Position numbers and translations under genes: made by a program. This document shows positions 2,887 through 17,000 of a DNA stretch of 64,000 nucleotides, one piece after another; within the stretch, counting starts at the first letter, position 1, and each line of letters begins with the position of its first letter. The stretch comes from an uncultured Pseudomonadales bacterium. GTDB taxonomy: Bacteria > Patescibacteriota > Microgenomatia > UBA1400 > MFAQ01. The stretch covers positions 47,489-111,488 of the forward strand of contig CAYTOI010000002.1 in NCBI GenBank assembly GCA_964439805.1, given 5' to 3'. A model generated the notes under the pieces. It was given only the letters and a program-made list of their open reading frames with translations. It was not told the origin of the DNA and searched no databases.

Positions 2887-5800
2887 TTATAATTTTGTTT
2901 TAAATCCTTTTAGAAAATCGCTGGAGTCGTATTCCTCAAGAAGGGACTTGGGAAGTTTGCCTACTTTGGGAGCAATTATTTTTCTAGGAGCGGAAGCCTT
3001 AATGGGTGAGACTGAGATTTTTCTTATTGCGGGTGACTTGGTTCCAGAACTAACCTTCTTGCCTTTGGTTGCTGATATGACCTTGTTAAATGCTTTCTGT
3101 TGGTTCTCAGTGATAAAACCATCATCTAGCCACTTAGCTGTAACTCCTGTGGTTAAAACCTCGGACTCAGCAAGTTTATAAACTGTCTGGGCGTATTGTT
3201 GTTCTGTCATTCCTGAAAGGAAGTTCACCAAGTAGTTTCCACGACTGCCACTATCGACAGGAAGTGTCTTCATCATTTTCAAAGAACTTTCTTCGTAATT
3301 TGGCAAGCCTCTTTTTTGTAGAACTAACTCAATTTTGTCTTTAGATAGTCCAGACTGAAAAATTTGCTTTATTTCGTTAACTTGGTCTGAGACCTGTGTT
3401 TGTTTGTCCAAAGTGTCCAACAGTAAATCACCTCTTGAGGTACTAGTTTTTTTAGTTGTACCAAAAACTTTCTCCTTTAATAAATCGAAGAGGTTAAAAC
3501 TTTGCTGGCCAGAAATATCTTTTTTCAATGACTCCGCTTGTGTTCTGCCTTGTGTTGCTGTGGCATACGCGTCTTCTGGTTTTATTCCAGCGGAAACAAG
3601 TGACCTGTAAATGTCGGATTGGTTAACACCTAATGGATTTGGTTTATCAAAATACTTTTTGGCATTTTCTCCAACTGTAGGACCAAACATAATATCTTGC
3701 ACAGCGTTACCGCTCGGATACTTAAGGTTTCCTGTGGTTGGTGAGTACACTCCGCCTTGGAGCTGGCTTTGTAGGCCATTGTAGGACTTCAATATTTGGC
3801 CTCCTGCGGGGATGTATGACATTCCGCCTTTGAGAATGTCTTTTGGTCCATTTTCGTTACCTGTTGCTGTTTCAATAATTCCCTTTGGAAGTTGTAGGGT
3901 TGGTGGCGTTGTAGATATTCCAGAATTAAAAGGAATCATATTGTCCCACTCCATTCCTACAGCTTTTCCAATTGTTGAGGTGAACAATAAGGAAGCACCT
4001 ATATAGCGAAGTAGACCAGCAAAATCTTTTTGTACTACTTTGTTTCCTAAAAACTCCACTTGTTTGACCCCGAAAGACTGGAATTGTAAAAGTGTTTTTG
4101 CAATATCGCTTTGTAAAGCTACAGGTGTGTCTATGGCTCCAAAATTAAACTGTGTCTTGCGGACAATAGACTTGGCGAATTCAATAGCTTTTTCCTCACT
4201 TATTCCTTTATCTATCGCTTGAGCTTTCGCGCCCCAATAAGCGGCGCCTCTATTTACTTTCTCAGCTAGGTTAAACATGTAAAACAATCCGTCGTCCAGT
4301 TTTTGTAAAGTTTTACGAGTGGCGTTTAGGGTTCTATCTTCAATAAAAGAATTTTTAAGAACTCCAACTTTTTCCAGCTCACTATCGGCACCCGTGACAA
4401 AGTTCTTTAAGTTCTTGGCGACCTGGGTATAACCTTTGAGAGTGTATTTTTCTCCTAGTTCTGCGTAGGTATTGGCTCCTTGAGACAGGTTACGAAGGGC
4501 ACTCGCTGGATTCAAGCCAATTAAACCCTTGTAGACGGCTTGTCTAGCTTTTTGGGTAATAGCAGTCGTTGGTCTTTGACCAAATTTATAGCCAATAGGA
4601 CTACTTTTTATCGTGTTGTCCAAGAGGTTATCAATATCGGTAGGACGCATTTGGACACGGTCAATAAAATTCTTTACATAATTAAACTGTGAAGTTTCTA
4701 GGTCGTCGGCTACAGTTTTAACTTTCTCAAGTGCAGGGTCCATCCAATACTTACGGACTGCTCTTTTTGTATAAGCGTCCAAAGCCTGCCAAGTGTCTTG
4801 TATGTAACCTTCAGCGTCACCGCGTTTTTGGAGGAAAGGGTCATAAGTAGAGCCCGCAACCTTGTCACGAATTAACTTCGCAAATTCTGGGTCAAACTCT
4901 TGCTCTACTTCACCTCTCTTAAAAATATGGGTAATGTAGTTTGAGAGTCTTTTGTCTTTTGGAAGTTTTAACTTCTCAGCCCAATCGGAAAGATAACCCT
5001 TGATTTCAGTAGCCACTTTCAACTCTGTCTTATCCAAAAACTTCTCAGGCGCTTTACCGTCTAGGTACTGGAAAATAAGTTTATTGCTTTCTGGTGAGAC
5101 TTGTTTACTCCACTCTGTAATTTTGCTAATTTCCTTTGGAAGTTCATCCAAATATGTATCGTGTGCCAAGCGAATACTTTGAAACTCTGGCTTAAGTCCC
5201 ATTTTGCTAAACACAGTTGAGGGAGTGCGAAGGTAGTCCAATAAATTTACTTTTGACTTAACACTAAGTCCTGCCTCATCCGCAAACTTTGTCGCCATGT
5301 TCTCAATTGTTTTACCTTCTATTTTCGCCCAAGCTTTACTTGCTGGCATTTCTATCATTTCTTTTTCTGAAAATTTACCAGCTAAATAACTCAATCTCTT
5401 TTGAGGGTCTAAGCTTCTAAATGCTTTTTGTAACTTTGTAAATGGTCCAGCTTCACCCTCCAATTTACTTGCAAGTACTTGGGCGCCTTTCTTGATTAAG
5501 GGACTGGCTTTTGCACCAATATCCTCAATAGGGGCAGTCATACCCATAATCATTCCCGACATTCTGTTAAAGTCTTCTTTTTGTAAACTCTTTATATCTT
5601 GAGGTGTAGCTTTGTCATTGTAAAAATTTTCTGTAGCGGTTCTTGTCTCATCTGAAGGGCTCAACATGGTTTTAAATAGACCGCCAAAAACTGGTGTTTT
5701 GAAAATTGTGTTTTTTTTAAAATTCTCAATTGCTGGTGAGGCTTTAACTGGTGCACCATATAAACCAACCTTTCTAGCTTTTTCGGAATCTGAAATATAT

Positions 5801-6036
5801 TGGTCAAATTGTTGCTGTAAACCTTGGAAGGCTTTTGACAAATCGACTTTAAAAGTAGGCTTTTGGACTGTGTCCAAGTTTTTGACTATTTCACGAGTTG
5901 ATAAATTGCTTGGTCTGTAAGTAGATAACTCAGCGTTTAACTGGGCGTTTCTGTATGGGTCAATTGTTTTTTGTGGAGTGGGAGCGGGGTTTACGAACTC
6001 TTTGACCTTCTGGACGATGGCCTTAAAAATATTCAT
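2887..6036 (-). CDS. large hypothetical protein (1049 aa), element-encoded; possible virion/structural or DNA-delivery protein
   Basis: Uninterrupted 3.15-kb ORF, mostly soluble, Lys-rich C-terminal tail; start overlaps stop of upstream 405-aa gene (TAATG). No catalytic motif recognised by eye. Confidence 0.6.
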   Translation of the reverse strand: MNIFKAIVQKVKEFVNPAPTPQKTIDPYRNAQLNAELSTYRPSNLSTREIVKNLDTVQKPTFKVDLSKAFQGLQQQFDQYISDSEKARKVGLYGAPVKASPAIENFKKNTIFKTPVFGGLFKTMLSPSDETRTATENFYNDKATPQDIKSLQKEDFNRMSGMIMGMTAPIEDIGAKASPLIKKGAQVLASKLEGEAGPFTKLQKAFRSLDPQKRLSYLAGKFSEKEMIEMPASKAWAKIEGKTIENMATKFADEAGLSVKSKVNLLDYLRTPSTVFSKMGLKPEFQSIRLAHDTYLDELPKEISKITEWSKQVSPESNKLIFQYLDGKAPEKFLDKTELKVATEIKGYLSDWAEKLKLPKDKRLSNYITHIFKRGEVEQEFDPEFAKLIRDKVAGSTYDPFLQKRGDAEGYIQDTWQALDAYTKRAVRKYWMDPALEKVKTVADDLETSQFNYVKNFIDRVQMRPTDIDNLLDNTIKSSPIGYKFGQRPTTAITQKARQAVYKGLIGLNPASALRNLSQGANTYAELGEKYTLKGYTQVAKNLKNFVTGADSELEKVGVLKNSFIEDRTLNATRKTLQKLDDGLFYMFNLAEKVNRGAAYWGAKAQAIDKGISEEKAIEFAKSIVRKTQFNFGAIDTPVALQSDIAKTLLQFQSFGVKQVEFLGNKVVQKDFAGLLRYIGASLLFTSTIGKAVGMEWDNMIPFNSGISTTPPTLQLPKGIIETATGNENGPKDILKGGMSYIPAGGQILKSYNGLQSQLQGGVYSPTTGNLKYPSGNAVQDIMFGPTVGENAKKYFDKPNPLGVNQSDIYRSLVSAGIKPEDAYATATQGRTQAESLKKDISGQQSFNLFDLLKEKVFGTTKKTSTSRGDLLLDTLDKQTQVSDQVNEIKQIFQSGLSKDKIELVLQKRGLPNYEESSLKMMKTLPVDSGSRGNYLVNFLSGMTEQQYAQTVYKLAESEVLTTGVTAKWLDDGFITENQQKAFNKVISATKGKKVSSGTKSPAIRKISVSPIKASAPRKIIAPKVGKLPKSLLEEYDSSDFLKGFKTKL

Positions 6037-7253
6037 TATGCGAATATGTCAAATAATTCGGTGAAGGTGTTTCCTTGTAACTCACTGTCACTTAGTAGAG
6101 TGCTCTTGCTGTCATAAGTTGTTCTTGTTGGAACTTGTGAGCTTTGGGAAGGTGCTTGGTTGTCGTATCCTGAAAACTGGACGTTGTTTATTTTTGGAAC
6201 TGAGAGAACAGTTTCAGCATTTTTTGCTAGATTGTTTTGTAGTTGAGTCTTTACTTGCTCGCGCCACATGTTTAGTTCTAGTTCTGCGGCGTATTTTTGA
6301 TTTGCTAAAGCTTGACTGTCGGCAAGCTGTTGTCTAAGAACGTCTACTTTGGCCGCTTGTCTTGCTGACTCAGTTTCAAACTTCCTTGCTTGTATTTCTG
6401 CTCTTTTTTGGTCGTATAAAGAATTTATTTTTTTAAGTTCTGTGGCTTGTGCCTTTTGTAGCTCAAATTTTTTATCGTTTACAAATTTGTTTGCATTATC
6501 GAAGTATTGGAACGCTTGAGTTATTCCCTCCATCATTGTTTTACGAAGTCCACCAGTACCGCGAAGCGTCTCTTGTCCAAGTAAATCACTAACCGCGGCT
6601 CCTGTTGAGCTTCCACCTCCGAAGCGGTTCATTGCTCCTTGTTTTAAGGTGTTGTACTCGCGAATGGCGTTACTGTAAGCTGAAGAGTATTGGTCTTGTA
6701 GAGTTTGCTGTGCGTTGTCTCTATTTTGGGCGTACTGTCCCAAACTTCTATCAAGTTCGTTTTGCGCTGATATTGAAGCGTTGTTTGCTTCCTCAATTGC
6801 AATAGGGCGTTGCTTTTCTAGTTCACCAAGATAGTTATCGTATGTTTGATTTAAGGGAGCATAAATGGAATCAATTTCACCGTTTAAGTTATTACCAGAT
6901 GAATTGCCAAGTTCTGCTTCGTATCTAGCTCTTTGGCTTGGGTCGTTAAGAATATTGTTGATGGTGTTCTGGTCATTAAAACCAAACTTACTTCTTAACA
7001 AATCAGCAGTTAACCCTCCCGAAGATTGTTGGGGTTGTGGTGTTGGAGTTGAGCTATAAGTTTTTTGTACAGAATTAACAAGAGGTTTAATTGTTGTATT
7101 GTTTGGTTGAGTTATGGGAAGAGTGCTGTAGTCTGGTGGATTGTTAGTCACTGTTCTAGCGAATTCCGCTTGTCGAACCGTCGAAGAATTCATAATGGAA
7201 TCCCAAGTCTTTTGGAAAATGTTTCTTGTATCGGGCAGGATTGAATCTGGCAT
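6036..7253 (-). CDS. Q/N-rich coiled-coil protein (405 aa); scaffold/tape-measure-like
   Basis: Long predicted coiled-coil segments, low-complexity S/T/Q/N N-terminus; first gene of the operon. Confidence 0.55.
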   Translation of the reverse strand: MPDSILPDTRNIFQKTWDSIMNSSTVRQAEFARTVTNNPPDYSTLPITQPNNTTIKPLVNSVQKTYSSTPTPQPQQSSGGLTADLLRSKFGFNDQNTINNILNDPSQRARYEAELGNSSGNNLNGEIDSIYAPLNQTYDNYLGELEKQRPIAIEEANNASISAQNELDRSLGQYAQNRDNAQQTLQDQYSSAYSNAIREYNTLKQGAMNRFGGGSSTGAAVSDLLGQETLRGTGGLRKTMMEGITQAFQYFDNANKFVNDKKFELQKAQATELKKINSLYDQKRAEIQARKFETESARQAAKVDVLRQQLADSQALANQKYAAELELNMWREQVKTQLQNNLAKNAETVLSVPKINNVQFSGYDNQAPSQSSQVPTRTTYDSKSTLLSDSELQGNTFTELFDIFA

Positions 7254-8173: not shown

Positions 8174-8632
8174 ATGAAGAAAATACTGCTTTCCTTGGTT
8201 TTTCTGCTCGTAAGTGCTTCGCCTGTATTCGCTCATCCTGGACGTACGGACTCAAGCGGTTGCCATGTTTGCAGAACAAACTGTGATAAATGGGGCGTTT
8301 CTTGGAATGTAAAACACTGTCATGGTGGCTCAGTTGCTCCAGTAGTAACAGCAAAACCTACTGTTAAGGCGACACCACTACCAACAAGAATCTACACACC
8401 AGCTCCTACAAAAATAGCTACTCCAACACTAACTAAATTGGTAACCCCTACACCTACACCAACCGCTACACCCACTCCTACAGTTGAGCCCACTGTAACA
8501 ACTACACTGACTCCAACAATTGAGGTTACAGCTATACCTACAAACACTCCAACACCCACCGTCTTGGGCACTAAGACGACTCAAGGGAGAGGCTTTTGGG
8601 GATGGTTATCAAGAATGTTTGGTGGTAAATGA
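8174..8632 (+). CDS. secreted Cys/His-rich protein with Thr/Pro-rich linker (152 aa)
   Basis: Signal peptide MKKILLSLVFLLVSASPVFA; HPGRTDSSGCHVCRTNCDKWGVSWNVKHCHGG module; (TPTPTPTATPTPT) linker. Confidence 0.55.
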   Translation: MKKILLSLVFLLVSASPVFAHPGRTDSSGCHVCRTNCDKWGVSWNVKHCHGGSVAPVVTAKPTVKATPLPTRIYTPAPTKIATPTLTKLVTPTPTPTATPTPTVEPTVTTTLTPTIEVTAIPTNTPTPTVLGTKTTQGRGFWGWLSRMFGGK

Positions 8633-9547: not shown

Positions 9548-9957
9548 AAAAATTTATCAACTTTTTATATTCCGCGTTTTTTGTGTATGGGGGTGTTGGG
9601 TATGGGTAAATGTAAATTGTAAAAAAATATTGATAGACCGCTTTTATTCCGTACTAGATATTATCCTCTTTACTGCCTTTTCCCCCAGCGAGGTATCGGT
9701 TATAAATAGACCCCTATATATGGGGATGTAAGGAATTATGTATATGTATGATTTATATCCTTGATATGTTGTATCTGTGGCTAGGTGGGGGGGTGGGGAG
9801 GAGATTGGGGAATGGGGATATTTATAATAAATAAACTACTCTCGCGCATATCGTACAGGCACGACCAACCATAAATATTATATTTTTATATATTTCCGCA
9901 CAAAACCCGAAAGGTAATACAATCAATATAAAGTGTATTCACAAACAAAACACGAAC
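9548..9957. other. 410-bp non-coding region with G-tract clusters (G4 motif 9787-9817) and AT-rich repeats; candidate origin/packaging/regulatory region of the element
   Basis: GGGGGGG-t-GGGG-aggagatt-GGGG-aat-GGGG at 9787-9817; second G-rich patch 9589-9606; TATGTATATGTATGATTTATATCC AT-rich block; lies between convergent gene blocks. Confidence 0.3.
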
Positions 9958-11245: not shown

Positions 11246-11452
11246 TTATTTGAGGTTTTTAATAAAAGAAATAATTTCGGAGCCTAAAAAACTATATGAC
11301 CCTTGACCATCAAAACCACCCTTACCAATACGACTGGGTTTTAACTTTCCTTCTCTAACAAATCTTTCAGCCCTAACTCTACCAATCCCAAGAGTTTTCT
11401 GGGTCTCTTTGTAGTTATAAATTGCGTCTCTTTTTATTGTTGTCTTCTCCAT
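11246..11452 (-). CDS. excisionase/HTH_17-like DNA-binding protein (68 aa)
   Basis: YNYKETQKTLGIGRVRAERFVREGKLKPSRIGKG matches the Xis/MerR-type helix-turn-helix pattern (...iGr.rr.....). Confidence 0.5.
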   Translation of the reverse strand: MEKTTIKRDAIYNYKETQKTLGIGRVRAERFVREGKLKPSRIGKGGFDGQGSYSFLGSEIISFIKNLK

Positions 11453-11751: not shown

Positions 11752-11783
11752 GTAGGTGGTGGTCTGCCCTGGCTACCACCTAC
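11752..11783. promoter_or_regulatory. 9-bp perfect inverted repeat GTAGGTGGT-N14-ACCACCTAC in leader of HTH/rep operon
   Basis: Read directly; not followed by a U-run, so more likely operator/attenuator than terminator. Confidence 0.3.
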
Positions 11784-11815
11784 AAACAAAAAATTATTTA
11801 TTAAATCGAAAAATT

Positions 11816-12082
11816 ATGACAAATCTCGATATTTATTTAAGTTACTCCTTGGGAGCGAACGATATTCGTTTCCTTGAGTTACTACAAACTTTACCAAACT
11901 GTGAGTGGAGGGACAAGCAGACGGCATTAGCCATTGACCTACGCCTTCACAAAACCACAGTTAACGAAATGATTAAACGACTCAAGAAAAAGAAGTTGGT
12001 TCGAGTTAGAAAAACAAAAAAAAGTGTGCCCCTAGTTATCAAGCTTGGTTTGGAGCTAAGAAAGGAGAAAACAAATGGCTAA
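11816..12082 (+). CDS. small HTH transcriptional regulator (88 aa; MarR/wHTH-like)
   Basis: ...KQTALAIDLRLHKTTVNEMIKRLKKKKLV; ATG at 11816 preferred over GTG 11756, which lies in the hairpin. Confidence 0.45.
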   Translation: MTNLDIYLSYSLGANDIRFLELLQTLPNCEWRDKQTALAIDLRLHKTTVNEMIKRLKKKKLVRVRKTKKSVPLVIKLGLELRKEKTNG

Positions 12083-13016
12083 CAGAAAAAAGGTAATAGA
12101 TAACGATTCTGCTTGTGCTCTTGGTTTAACCGAGTCTGTAGTTTTTAATCAAATTAACTATTGGTCAAAAAAATCAAAACACACAGTCAACGGAGTATCT
12201 GGTTGGTTCTACAAAACTTTTGACAAATTCCAAAAAGAGGACTTCCCTTTTTTGTCAGTACGATGGATAAAAACTACCATAAAAAAACTTAACGAGCTGA
12301 AACTAATTGAGGTAGGAGAATTTAATACTTGGAGAGCTGACCGCACAAAGTGGTACAAAGTTGCCGACGACGCTGAGGCCAAAATCAAAGCTATTTTAGA
12401 AAAAAAGCATAGTGAACAAAATGCACTATGCTCTGACACAAAGTGCACTATGCCAAAGTGCACAAAGTGCACGAGCAATAACCATAGAGTAACTAAACCA
12501 AAGAGTACAGACATAAATTTAGAATTACATTCTAATGGCGGTGCCATTTTAAAGGACTCAGTAAGTAATAAAGTTAGACTATCTATTGAGACAAATAGTT
12601 ACAACAAGACCGAGCCAATAAGCGCTTACTCCAATAATCGCCTAGCAGAAATCACCACCACCCTTCTAGCTAAACGCCACCTGACCAAGTTAACTTTCGA
12701 GCTAGACAAACCTTTACCGCCAAATGAAAAAGGTGAGTATCCAGCAGAGGCGTATCAACTTATCCGCGATTATGGCTGTTCTTACTCACCAGACAGTTTT
12801 CTGTATAACGAAGGCGACGATAAAAATTGGGGATACTTTGGCCGAAGAATAAAAGAAGCATTTCAAGAAGGAGCGACCGTTGAAGGACTGTGCGGCGCAA
12901 TTTACAGAATTGCAGAAGGTGAGGACATAAACAACCTTGGCTCTTTCAGAGATGAGCCCATTCAGGTTGATAGTGTTTATTCCGAATGGTCTGCTTGGAC
13001 AAATAAAGTTGAATAA
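12075..13016 (+). CDS. replication-initiator-like protein (313 aa) containing internal iterons
   Basis: Good SD (AAAGGAG); N-terminal wHTH-like segment; internal tandem repeats AAAGTGCAC x3; position after regulator gene. Confidence 0.4.
   Translation: MANRKKVIDNDSACALGLTESVVFNQINYWSKKSKHTVNGVSGWFYKTFDKFQKEDFPFLSVRWIKTTIKKLNELKLIEVGEFNTWRADRTKWYKVADDAEAKIKAILEKKHSEQNALCSDTKCTMPKCTKCTSNNHRVTKPKSTDINLELHSNGGAILKDSVSNKVRLSIETNSYNKTEPISAYSNNRLAEITTTLLAKRHLTKLTFELDKPLPPNEKGEYPAEAYQLIRDYGCSYSPDSFLYNEGDDKNWGYFGRRIKEAFQEGATVEGLCGAIYRIAEGEDINNLGSFRDEPIQVDSVYSEWSAWTNKVE
12422..12472. repeat. iteron-like direct repeats (AAAGTGCAC x3 at 12440, 12455, 12464; TGCACTATGC x2) with palindromic GTGCAC cores
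   Basis: Seen directly within the rep-like ORF. Confidence 0.5.
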
Positions 13017-13018
13017 AT

Positions 13019-13363
13019 ATGAAATTACAAAAAATTATTAAAACCATGGAAAAAACCTGTAACCGCTGTCACCAGCAAAAACCACAAAATGAATTTAGTA
13101 ACAAATACCGCTGTAGAGAATGCAGTAGAGAACTTTTTAGAGACTACTACCGCAGACATGCAGAAGAACTAAATGAGAAGGGAAGAATTTGGCGCATGAA
13201 TAACCAAGAAAAAGTAAAAGCAAACGCTAAGGAATATTTTAAAAATCATAAACAAGAAATTAATTCTTATTTAAAAAAGAGAAGAGACCAAAAGAAACTT
13301 AACAACCCCATAGCAAATGCATTTGTAAGACCTCAGGATGCCTCTAAATCGTTTGCAAAATAA
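13019..13363 (+). CDS. basic zinc-finger protein (114 aa)
   Basis: CNRCHQQK...RCRECSRE two CxxC pairs; K/R-rich remainder. Confidence 0.4.
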   Translation: MKLQKIIKTMEKTCNRCHQQKPQNEFSNKYRCRECSRELFRDYYRRHAEELNEKGRIWRMNNQEKVKANAKEYFKNHKQEINSYLKKRRDQKKLNNPIANAFVRPQDASKSFAK

Positions 13364-13407
13364 CTTTACGACTACTATTACAAAAGACCTATAAAAAAAC
13401 AAATATT

Positions 13408-14339: not shown

Positions 14340-14378
14340 GTTTTGTCGAAGTACTAAAATTATAGTAGCATATATTTA

Positions 14379-14621
14379 TTGATATATCAACAAATAATTG
14401 ACAATAAAATATATAAAGTGTATATTGACGGCATGGACATATTTAATACACCAGAAGGAAAAAAGTTTTTAGAAGCATACAAGGTAACCCGCCAAACTAT
14501 TCCCAACGAAAAAAGGTGGAAACTAGCTGAAGAACGACTAAATGGCTTACCGCTATCCGTAAAAAAAGAAGAGAAAGCTCAAGGCATACCCCTTAGTGTG
14601 GTGACTTTAAACAAAAAATAA
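14379..14621 (+). CDS. hypothetical protein (80 aa), upstream of integrase (possible directionality factor)
   Basis: ORF only. Confidence 0.3.
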   Translation: MIYQQIIDNKIYKVYIDGMDIFNTPEGKKFLEAYKVTRQTIPNEKRWKLAEERLNGLPLSVKKEEKAQGIPLSVVTLNKK

Positions 14622-14662: not shown

Positions 14663-16333
14663 ATGAAAAAAGCAGTAGCATACCTTCGTGTTAGTACTGA
14701 TAGCCAAAGCACTAGTTCTCAAAGGGACAAAATACAAGAATATGCCGTAGCAAATGGCTATGAAGTTGAGAAATGGTTTGAGGACTCTGCTCTTTCTGGA
14801 ACTCTAGACGATAGACCTCAACTCTTAGCTCTAAAAGAATGGGTACCAAACAATGAGGGCAAAAGTATTTTAATGGTTGGCCTCGATAGACTTGCGAGAG
14901 ACTTTGCAATATTTATCGACATGTCAACGCTTTTCAATAATTACAATGTAACCCCTGTTTACATAAATTGTCCAAGTAGTGGTGACGCAGTCATGGACAC
15001 TTTTCTCCAAAATATTCTAGCCTCTTTTGCTTCACTAGAAAAAGAACTCATTTCTCAAAGATTTAATAGAGGAAAACGATTTAAATTAAAAAATGGAATT
15101 ATTGCCGCTGGTGGTCCGCCATTGTTTGGGTATAAGTATCGGGTCGACTATTATCCTAGTGGTAAAAAAGATAAGTATTACGAAATAAACGAGGAGGAGG
15201 CGGAGACTGTTCGCCTCATGTTTAGAATGCTGTTATCTGAAAAGTACAAAGTTCAAGGAATTGGTAGAGAGTTAACTAGATTAAAAATCAGAACCCGCTC
15301 AGGGACTACCAGATGGGCGCCAAGCAGTACTCGAAGTCTGCTTTGTAACACAACATATATGGGTGATTACAGATACGGCAAAACTAAAATGCAAGGAGTT
15401 GGAAAAAATAGACACGAAGTCCCTCGAGCCATTGAAGAACAAATGGTTATTCCTGTACCTCCAATAATTACAAGAGAAGAATTTGCAAGAGCACAAGAAA
15501 TACTTGAGAGATTGGCGAGAGGTGCGGGTGGTCGCAAGCGACACAATGACACAGTTTTACTTTCAGGACTAATGATTTGCGGAAACTGTAACTATAGGTA
15601 TTCAGCAGGTGGACGAAGTACAGGGAAAAGGCTACATAGTTATTACAGGTGTAATTCTATAAACCGCTATAACGCAGACGGTGAACACCACTCCTGTGGT
15701 AACGCTACTTTGAAAACGGCCGAGGCGGATAGTGCAGTTTGGAACGCACTCGCGGATATACTTATAAACCCCGATAAGGTTAAAAACACCACAGACTCAA
15801 AAAGAAGAAAAGAGGAAATAGAGGGAATGTATGACGATATGATAAGTTTGGTTAAAAGACAGGAAAAAATTGCCGATGAGGAAAAAAGAATAATTGATGG
15901 TTATGCCAAGGGTTTGTTTGGAGATAGTCAAGTTAGGGAATACAGACAAGACTTAGCTGAGAAAAATAAAGAAATTGGCGATAAGTTACACGAAATAAAT
16001 TTACAAGTAAGCAACGCGTTGTGGGAGGATGGGGAGATAGATTTTGGCAAACCAAAAACTAGGAAGCAGGTCGACAAGTACACTTTTGATAAAAAGAGGG
16101 AGCTTATAAAAACCTACATTACAGAAGTTAGAGTTTTACCAACCGAACCAACCAAGTTAGAGATAGTTTTTAGGTTACCAATTGAGCCTAACAAGTCAGT
16201 TGTAACAATCAACGGCTCCCCGCGGGAAGTAGTACCTAGTTACAAAAATAATGGAAAAGTTGTAACAACTAATAACTCCCTCCAAATCCAGGCAAGATCA
16301 CTACCTTCTCCTTCTCGGGAGCAGGGCTTGTAA
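14663..16333 (+). CDS. large serine recombinase (phage-type integrase, 556 aa)
   Basis: N-terminal resolvase catalytic domain (AVAYLRVSTDSQ, ...GLDRLARD), recombinase domain, zinc-ribbon (CGNCNYRYSAGG...YYRCNS), coiled-coil region. Confidence 0.9.
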   Translation: MKKAVAYLRVSTDSQSTSSQRDKIQEYAVANGYEVEKWFEDSALSGTLDDRPQLLALKEWVPNNEGKSILMVGLDRLARDFAIFIDMSTLFNNYNVTPVYINCPSSGDAVMDTFLQNILASFASLEKELISQRFNRGKRFKLKNGIIAAGGPPLFGYKYRVDYYPSGKKDKYYEINEEEAETVRLMFRMLLSEKYKVQGIGRELTRLKIRTRSGTTRWAPSSTRSLLCNTTYMGDYRYGKTKMQGVGKNRHEVPRAIEEQMVIPVPPIITREEFARAQEILERLARGAGGRKRHNDTVLLSGLMICGNCNYRYSAGGRSTGKRLHSYYRCNSINRYNADGEHHSCGNATLKTAEADSAVWNALADILINPDKVKNTTDSKRRKEEIEGMYDDMISLVKRQEKIADEEKRIIDGYAKGLFGDSQVREYRQDLAEKNKEIGDKLHEINLQVSNALWEDGEIDFGKPKTRKQVDKYTFDKKRELIKTYITEVRVLPTEPTKLEIVFRLPIEPNKSVVTINGSPREVVPSYKNNGKVVTTNNSLQIQARSLPSPSREQGL

Positions 16334-17000
16334 TACTTAAAAAATCAACCAATATTGATGCTCTAGAAGTTACTGTAATTGTCTCCTGGGGGCTACCAAA
16401 TAATGCATACTTTAGATTTCTACTAGCTATATAGCTTTTTATGCTATTTGAATCAATTGATACATCATATAATCCATTTTTATAATTAACTTTAAAATCG
16501 TGATAAATATTGAGATTAAAAGTGCTAATTTTTCTAAATTGATTTTGGTTGCACCCAGGTTCGGTTGTTGGGCATAAACTAGTCCAAAGATTTGCCGTAG
16601 TATTACTTTCAGGCCATATTAGAAAAATAATATCGCTAGGCAGAATATCTCTCTTGTCTAGATTTGGAAAAATTTTGTCAGATAGTATTATTCCAGATCC
16701 AAAATTTAATGGACCTTCTATTTTAAATTTTGTTAAGAGTTTATATTCAAGAAGCGGAAATATATCAGGCTTGGAAACTAGATATGGAAAAAAATTACCC
16801 GATGGGGTACTCAACTTAATAGATCCATCTATTATAGAAACGCTTCCGTAGTTTTGATAAACCGTCCATTTAGATTCATCTACCGTATCAAAATTATCGA
16901 TATAGATTTTATCTGCCGAAAAAATATGGCTGGGGAAGATAATTAAAAAAACAAACAGCAAGCAAGAACAAGAAAAAAATACTTTGATAATGTGTCTCAT
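16269..17000 (-). CDS. secreted N-terminal portion of the split LCAT-like lipase gene (243 aa: signal peptide + beta-rich domain, ends ...KVVILPGFGGSY*)
   Basis: Signal peptide; C-terminus PGFGGS = LCAT oxyanion motif immediately followed by a stop; overlaps integrase 3' end. Confidence 0.5.
   Translation of the reverse strand: MRHIIKVFFSCSCLLFVFLIIFPSHIFSADKIYIDNFDTVDESKWTVYQNYGSVSIIDGSIKLSTPSGNFFPYLVSKPDIFPLLEYKLLTKFKIEGPLNFGSGIILSDKIFPNLDKRDILPSDIIFLIWPESNTTANLWTSLCPTTEPGCNQNQFRKISTFNLNIYHDFKVNYKNGLYDVSIDSNSIKSYIASRNLKYALFGSPQETITVTSRASILVDFLSITSPAPEKEKVVILPGFGGSY

Follow-up and report, generated by a model that had tools for sequence, protein, structure and literature searches.

What is the function of a cluster of short repeats that lies in the middle of a protein-coding gene? 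This question is raised by a locus in a 64-kilobase (kb) stretch of DNA from an uncultured bacterium (contig CAYTOI010000002.1, positions 47,489 to 111,488), which is called the window here and to which all coordinates refer. The gene, rep, is a 313-amino acid (aa) open reading frame (ORF) at 12075–13016 on the forward strand, and it appears to belong to a small integrated mobile element whose other genes encode a serine integrase, an excisionase-like helix-turn-helix (HTH) protein and a small winged-helix protein. An earlier note on this DNA had proposed that rep encodes a replication initiator and contains its own origin, in the manner of gene O of phage lambda, and had named homology of the protein and conservation of the motif among related elements as the points to check. 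Both bear out the proposal. We consider it probable that 12407–12512 is the vegetative replication origin of the element, located inside rep and used by a mechanism resembling that of the lambda O-some, and the repeats most likely form an origin within the gene of the very protein that binds them, which is the lambda layout. Position, dyad design and spacing support this arrangement; no direct homology to lambda O can be detected. The evidence that decides the matter comes from comparison, namely the conservation of the array at 62 of 66 non-identical homologous loci.

Within rep, the 9-mer AAAGTGCAC occurs in three exact copies (12440–12448, 12455–12463 and 12464–12472), the last two adjacent, and the 10-mer CAAAGTGCAC is likewise present three times, with starts at 12439, 12454 and 12463 and spacings of 15 and 9 bp. 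Another repeat, TGCACTATGC, overlaps the first and is found twice (12422–12431 and 12444–12453). The earlier note had described both repeats correctly, and its three GTGCAC cores are indeed present at 12443, 12458 and 12467; of the two spacings that it gave for these cores, 9 bp holds and 18 bp does not, the actual distance being 15 bp. It had missed a fourth near-copy, CAAAATGCAC at 12417, and the sequence GCATAGTG (12407–12414), an inverted partner of the CACTATGC found at 12424 and 12446, and with these a dyad unit of about 22 bp. A 16-mer, ACAAARTGCACTATGC, is likewise repeated, with copies starting at 12416 and 12438 (22 bp apart). Nowhere else in the window is a 9-mer or 10-mer present three times within 40 nucleotides (nt). 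When the window was simulated 400 times with a second-order Markov model, a comparable 9-mer cluster arose once and a comparable 10-mer cluster never, and a chance origin of the cluster is unlikely. The word GTGCAC is not over-represented across the window (8 found versus 7.4 expected), so the signal lies in its local clustering.

Alignment with the closest homologous locus, L002, gives a better parsing of the array, into three dyad-like units of about 22 bp whose core centres are 22 and 24 bp apart. Iteron 1 (12407–12431, GCATAGTGAACAAAATGCACTATGC) has the core GTGAACAAAATGCAC at 12412–12426, and its arms GCATAGTG and CACTATGC form an 8-bp dyad. Iteron 2 (12432–12453, TCTGACACAAAGTGCACTATGC; core TGACACAAAGTGCAC at 12434–12448) is only about half symmetric, while in iteron 3 (12454–12472, CAAAGTGCACAAAGTGCAC) the core GTGCACAAAGTGCAC at 12458–12472 is a perfect 6+3+6 dyad, GTGCAC-AAA-GTGCAC. 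The consensus is approximately GTGnAC-AAAR-TGCAC, and two of the three units contain CAAAGTG as their core. The array as a whole covers 12407–12472, which corresponds to aa 112–133 of rep and begins at nt 333 of the gene. Iteron 1 is translated as QNAL and iterons 2 and 3, one frame over, as TKCT; since the repeats are thus read in different frames and the cysteines that they encode are not conserved in the related protein P0003, the constraint is on the DNA and not on the protein.

A Shine-Dalgarno sequence, AGGAG (12063–12067), can be read 7 nt before the ATG of rep, in agreement with the good one mentioned in the earlier note. The product of rep has the features expected of an initiator. 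Profiles from the PHROG database match residues 5–156, and the matches concern replication: phrog_6493 (DnaD-like helicase loader, E = 3e-20), phrog_11233 (replication initiation protein, E = 1e-19), phrog_428 (replication initiation protein, E = 3e-8), phrog_678 (replication initiation O-like, E = 7e-8) and phrog_9773 (replication initiation O-like, E = 3e-7). The C-terminal DnaB_2/DnaD domain (PF07261) is absent from rep according to Pfam, although it is present in the relatives P0013 and P0014, so the label of DnaD-like helicase loader does not apply to rep. An exhaustive HMMER search gave 4506 relatives at E ≤ 1e-3, nearly all of them matching aa 5–100, and the closest were P0002 (44% identity) and P0003 (37%). 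The near-invariant residues of the family, G17, L18, E20, Y29, W30, W44, Y46, P58, D89, T91, W93 and Y94, are present in rep. Judged by its sequence, rep is a member of a family of winged-helix initiators (phrog_6493/phrog_11233) that we call 'DRTKWY' after a motif found at aa 89–94 of the protein.

In the AlphaFold model, aa 10–119 (12102–12431, + strand) form a winged helix-turn-helix DNA-binding domain, with a predicted local distance difference test (pLDDT) score of 95–98 over aa 10–110. Its recognition helix is predicted at aa 62–74 and its wing at aa 84–92. Confidence is low from about aa 120, pLDDT is below 50 over aa 143–206, and the disordered linker is followed by a weakly defined helical C-terminal domain (aa ~186–313, 12630–13013, + strand) that is common to P0002 and P0003 only. 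Because the N-terminal domain ends at about aa 119–120, the putative origin is placed at the boundary between the winged helix and the linker. Foldseek comparison with the PDB returned generic winged-helix matches of the MarR/PadR type, none at E ≤ 0.001, and rep had no useful sequence matches in Pfam, NCBIfam or the PDB; in particular, neither Pfam nor NCBIfam found Rep_3 or any other plasmid Rep domain. A word-indexed protein search with rep recovered only the query, an alignment search with the C-terminal domain had no matches, and profile scans of genome and metagenome contigs with the three-sequence alignment yielded relatives of the N-terminal domain only.

If the repeats are an origin that is recognized by this family of proteins, a similar array should accompany the family elsewhere, and it does. 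The L002 locus, which encodes P0002 and has the same neighbours (an HTH_17 gene and an 88-aa gene), has, at the equivalent position in the gene, three repeats of 21 nt at spacings of 23 and 24 bp, with the cores GTGACAAAATGTCAC, GTGTCAAAATGTCAC and GGGACAAAATGTCCC. Across this region the window and L002 are 77% identical in DNA with collinear units, and identity at third codon positions peaks at 0.73–0.79 over aa 124–144, where amino acid identity is about 0.5. L003 has three 22-nt repeats of the GGTACAAGACAAAT type, spaced 22 and 23 bp apart, again in the equivalent position. We also retrieved another 80 loci from viral contigs, and every non-identical locus (n = 66) was scored; the array and block feature described here was defined in this analysis from these 66 loci and is not a curated one. 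In 62 of them, the strongest 20–25-nt periodic self-similarity within ±2.5 kb was found 0–150 nt after the DRTKWY codons, and in almost every case the period in this target zone was 22 or 23 nt (it was 21 nt in two loci). Under a stricter definition, an exact 7-mer present at least three times at 19–26-bp spacing, 37/66 loci had a cluster in the target zone, compared with 4 clusters in 306 kb of flanking sequence.

Each unit in the family is a small dyad around CAAAATG, and successive units are read in different frames, which marks them as a DNA-level signal. CAAAAT was present in 28 of 34 de-duplicated loci, a 12-fold enrichment. The CAAAATG core and a downstream block of the CAGAGACTAC type are conserved while the arms vary from element to element (for example GTATC, TGTTC, GGTCA, GGCCA and GTGCA), and such element-specific arms are the pattern expected of cognate pairs of initiator and iteron. 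Among annotated phages, tblastn led to initiator genes of Staphylococcus, Bacillus, Geobacillus and Klebsiella phages. Genes for a helicase loader or DnaB helicase lie directly downstream in four of the five phage regions examined, the Klebsiella phage being the exception. Four of the five genes have the array, with the cores GGGACAAAATGGCCC, TGGTCAAAATGACCA, CGTATCAAAATGATACG and GGGGCAAAATGCCCC and a spacing of 22–23 bp; the fifth, from a Geobacillus phage, has degenerate versions of the repeats that could be seen by eye.

The iterons are followed by a second conserved feature, CAATAACCATAGAGTAACTAAACCAAAGAGTACAGAC at 12476–12512, in which AGAGTA occurs at 12486 and 12502. It is the counterpart of a family-wide element, CCAATACCAGAGACTACACAGAGACTAC, of which the window version is CAATAACCATAGAGTAACTAAACCAAAGAGTAC (12476–12508), and its first 16 nt, CAATAACCATAGAGTA, are identical in L026. 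In the family this element comes after the dyads, about 100–170 nt beyond the DRTKWY codons in L010–L013 and L015–L094, and consists of CAGAGAYTAC copies placed 11–12 nt apart in different frames, which leave a recurrent 'PETTTE' motif as their trace in the protein. CAGAGA was found in 26/34 de-duplicated loci and is 25-fold enriched. We found no earlier description of the post-iteron element; it may be an unwinding or helicase-loading element. The segment from 12480 to 12600 is also richer in A+T (70–75% in 40-nt windows versus 61% overall) and is a candidate unwinding region, for which A+T content is weak evidence.

By analogy with lambda, the origin could work as follows. After excision of the element, dimers of the N-terminal winged-helix domain would bind the three dyad iterons, and core centres 22 and 24 bp apart, or about two helical turns, would align these dimers on one face of the DNA. 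The nucleoprotein complex would then distort the adjacent conserved, A+T-richer block (12476–12600), and the element-specific C-terminal domain would recruit the replicative helicase of the host or its loader; we infer this since no gene for either is found in the element. As in lambda, rep would be transcribed and translated through the origin. Binding by Rep, unwinding and helicase recruitment are all proposed here on the model of the lambda O-some.

Several observations weigh against the identification of an origin. Iteron 3 is the only clean dyad among the units in the window, and most relatives have a more regular array: at a fixed shift, the window array matches itself at 23/44 at best in the target zone, compared with 24/44 elsewhere in the locus. 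Its assignment therefore draws on the family context, on the collinear alignment with L002 and on the repeats that match exactly. The A+T richness of the flank is modest, and other segments of the element are less stable than 12480–12600. Dyads such as these would also form hairpins in messenger RNA (mRNA) or single-stranded DNA. The element is integrated, its ends are undefined and it could be a decaying remnant. Comparison of rep with lambda O gave a BLASTP E value of 28 and an hhalign probability of 0.1, and rep had no match to the Pfam family Phage_rep_O. Lastly, experimental evidence for any member of this N-terminal family was not found in the retrievable literature.

The repeats might instead be a feature of the protein, either a cysteine-rich metal-binding knuckle (C-x4-C-x4-C-x2-C, from LCSDTKCTMPKCTKC) or a linker of low complexity that arose by in-frame duplication of KCT codons, with no role as DNA. 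The exact copies share one frame, in which each of the three encodes K-C-T, four cysteines fall within 14 residues, and P0002 has two KC pairs at this place. However, the fourth copy and the two 16-mers lying 22 nt apart are read in different frames (QNALC versus TKCTM), the equivalent stretch of P0003 has no cysteine, and the 22–23-nt period kept by 62/66 relatives is not a multiple of 3. The structural model has the end of a helix running into a low-confidence stretch here, with no compact knuckle. A protein-level explanation is thus very improbable, and the zinc-knuckle reading was rejected on the evidence of frame and conservation. Hairpins in nucleic acid, whether as mRNA structure tuning the translation of rep, an antisense terminator or a single-strand origin, in place of protein-binding sites in the duplex, have an equally slight claim. 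The single strand of 12400–12480 does fold well (-16.3 kcal/mol, z = -4.4), and a consensus scan for promoters and terminators, which otherwise gave nothing above shuffle expectation, found that the iterons themselves make a hairpin resembling a terminator, with its T-rich tail on the minus strand (12463–12443). Yet any array of dyad sites folds well, making this an expected by-product, and in the relatives the stems are about 5 bp but the spacing and register of 22–23 bp are kept, which fits protein dimers on one face of a duplex; moreover, a scan of 9–17 kb of the window against Rfam gave no matches. That the cluster arose by chance, or by slippage as a microsatellite-like repeat, and has no present function in what would be the decaying gene of a defective element, is the hardest of all to credit. 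The two adjacent 9-mers do resemble a product of slippage and the array is more irregular than those of the relatives, but the reading frame of rep is intact, the array aligns collinearly with that of L002 at 77% identity even though protein identity is only 44%, and the simulations essentially never produced such a cluster.

An unlikely alternative, though one deserving somewhat more weight than these, is that the repeats are initiator or repressor operators for copy-number control, autoregulation or incompatibility, perhaps bound by the product of the 88-aa gene directly upstream, which is a second winged-helix protein, and that the origin is elsewhere in the element, for example in an intergenic A+T-rich stretch at ~13000–13400 or 14360–14400. 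In iteron plasmids, iterons commonly double as control and origin sites, and the least stable 40-mers of the element (at 13234, 14377 and 13003) are outside rep. Against this, the element contains no further copies of the motif, and the array tracks the Rep N-terminal domain in phages that lack the 88-aa gene. In lambda an equivalent design has been proven to be the origin (PMC7466680), as have the in-gene repeats of SPP1, TP901-1 and Tuc2009 (PMC6316719, PMC8965321). An origin inside rep consequently remains the reading that we prefer.

The neighbourhood of rep is that of a small mobile element. The 88-aa gene (11816–12082, + strand) extends 8 nt into the start of rep and is the small HTH regulator of which the earlier note had spoken: its product has sub-threshold, MarR/winged-helix-like matches (Pfam Penicillinase_R, MarR and Fe_dep_repress, E ~3e-4; NCBIfam Lrs14, 1e-4), and L002 also has an 88-aa gene at the corresponding position. 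This protein probably regulates the replication module. Divergent from the rep operon is a 68-aa HTH_17 excisionase-like gene (11246–11452, - strand), which has weak matches and the same place in the gene order of L002. An intergenic bidirectional terminator-like hairpin, AAAAAGGCCCCACA...TGTGGGGCTTTTTT, is conserved upstream of the rep operon in L002 (817–867) and L003 (1054–1105); the window has no clear counterpart, and a different hairpin is found at ~11754–11785. Directly after rep, a 114-aa ORF (13019–13363) contains CxxC...CxxC and has weak PHROG matches to endonuclease VII/HNH proteins (E = 1e-5 to 2e-4), and could be a nuclease or a zinc-ribbon accessory of the replication module. The cluster also contains several small orphan ORFs and the gene for a large serine recombinase, or integrase (14663–16333, + strand; Resolvase, 4e-25; Recombinase, 6e-21; Zn_ribbon_recom, 3e-11; phrog_95 integrase, 2e-89), and neighbouring small ORFs have no PHROG or Pfam matches. 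Pfam and PHROG scans found no helicase, loader, primase or structural genes in the gene cluster of the element. The arrangement of rep can therefore be described as 'initiator-solo', with no adjacent helicase or loader genes.

The extent of the element, for which our guess is about 6.5 kb, depends on ends that are not defined, as the search for attachment-like flanking direct repeats gave only 10–11-mers at chance level. On the left, an independent Logan contig (L001) starts at 9865, and a G-rich tract, CTAGGTGGGGGGGTGGGGAGGAGATTGGGGAATGGGGAT, lies just to the left of this point (9781–9820); the tract and the 9865 point may be a boundary of the element or merely an assembly break. On the right, the last 65 nt of the recombinase gene (16269–16333) are shared with a convergent 243-aa ORF (16269–17000, - strand) that has no family matches, and this overlap may mark the right attachment site. 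Beyond that ORF are glycosyltransferase genes, presumably of the host. Elsewhere in the window, the protein encoded at 8174–8632 (152 aa) looks secreted; its N-terminal part is rich in Cys and His (HPGRTDSSGCHVCRTNCDKWG...HCH), its long repeat tail is rich in Thr and Pro, and it has no Pfam match. Two large ORFs of 1049 and 405 aa at 2887–7253 (- strand) have no Pfam matches, the 405-aa one also having no PHROG match. The many orphan proteins of the window suggest a host lineage that is poorly sampled.

A precise pair of origin and initiator is thus predicted for a small mobile element whose other proteins are almost all orphans, and from this pair a minimal replicon or the backbone of a vector could be made for an uncultivated host. 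Conceptually, the case adds nothing to the paradigm of lambda, SPP1 and TP901-1; it is a very divergent, well-supported but ordinary example. The most reusable by-product is the origin grammar of the family, which offers a rule for finding origins in thousands of phage and prophage genomes (CAAAATG dyads with a period of 22–23 bp, 0–150 nt after the DRTKWY codons), and the combination of element-specific arms with a conserved core is a natural data set for the DNA specificity of winged-helix proteins. A more ambitious and rather doubtful proposal is that the 'DRTKWY' initiators define a very widespread class of origins, experimentally uncharacterised as far as we found, with a fixed bipartite in-gene grammar, and that this grammar is joined here to a new C-terminal domain directly recruiting the host helicase, in a minimal serine-integrase replicon of ~6.5 kb that may be a satellite or an integrative plasmid of an uncultivated lineage. 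The first part of the grammar would be 3–5 dyads with a near-universal CAAAATG core, element-specific arms and a 22–23-bp period, and the second an element of the CAGAGACTAC type with an 11–12-bp period and shifting frames.

The known systems closest to rep include the 'DRTKWY' initiators of phages, such as gp20 of Staphylococcus phage P954, gp52 of Bacillus phage vB_BhaS-171 and gp39 of Klebsiella phage SopranoGao, the proteins of this group being annotated as DnaD-like helicase loader, replication initiation protein or O-like. They share with rep a homologous N-terminal domain (E = 3e-20), in-gene dyads centred on CAAAATG at 22–23 bp and a block of the CCAATA..CAGAGA type that comes next. 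In contrast to these phages, rep is located in a small serine-integrase element and not in the replication module of a tailed phage, it has no neighbouring helicase or loader genes, and its array is less regular. Iteron plasmids (RepA, Pi, TrfA; Rep_3) resemble the element in having a winged-helix initiator, tandem iterons about two turns apart and an adjacent unwinding element. Plasmid iterons are direct repeats outside the rep gene and are bound by monomers, whereas the array described here consists of dyads inside the gene, and no Rep_3 domain is present.

In-gene origins have been shown experimentally for SPP1, where the repeats of oriL lie inside the initiator gene 38 (PMC6316719), and for ORF13 of TP901-1 and Rep2009 of Tuc2009 (PMC8965321). 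SPP1 gp38 and the lactococcal replisome organizers (TP901-1 ORF13, Tuc2009 Rep2009 and r1t ORF11) are like rep in that direct repeats are found in their own genes. They differ from it in that they have no detectable homology to its N-terminal domain, the period in TP901-1 is 15 nt, and the dyad design is absent. Membership of rep in the family of TP901-1 ORF13, Tuc2009 Rep and r1t ORF11 was rejected, as BLASTP (with TP901-1 ORF13) and the hidden Markov model of the N-terminal domain were both negative; the model was negative with lambda O as well. In the TP901-1 rep gene (L095, 4601–4655), the units are ACAAAAYACT with a 15-nt period, and they have an ACAAAA core as in the family of rep.

Another close counterpart is lambda, in which the iterons are located in gene O and the in-gene origin is proven (PMC7466680). 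Its four iterons occupy nt 349–433 of the gene and are imperfect dyads of 18–19 bp around CAAAAC or CAAATTG, spaced 20, 24 and 23 bp apart and followed by an A+T-rich tract. Since no direct homology could be detected, membership of rep in the lambda O family (Phage_rep_O, phrog_277) was rejected and the relationship is kept as one of functional analogy; the sole indirect link is that both proteins match phrog_678 (7e-8 for rep and 2e-35 for lambda O). The rep array has three iterons and not four and a far weaker A+T-rich tract, while rep itself has an unrelated C-terminal domain and is not followed by a P-like helicase-loader gene. In both systems, however, the origin sits midway through the initiator gene, just behind the part for the DNA-binding N-terminal domain, with the iterons starting at nt 349 in lambda and nt 333 in rep, and in both it consists of imperfect dyads around an A-rich core (TCCCTCAAAACGAGGGA in lambda, GTGCACAAAGTGCAC and GTGAACAAAATGCAC in rep) that are spaced 20–24 bp apart; on the 3' side lies an A+T-rich tract in lambda and a moderately A+T-richer flank in rep. 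The rep array has these hallmarks of an origin of the lambda type: three repeats between the N- and C-terminal domains, imperfect dyads of ~15–19 bp and a spacing within 20–24 bp.

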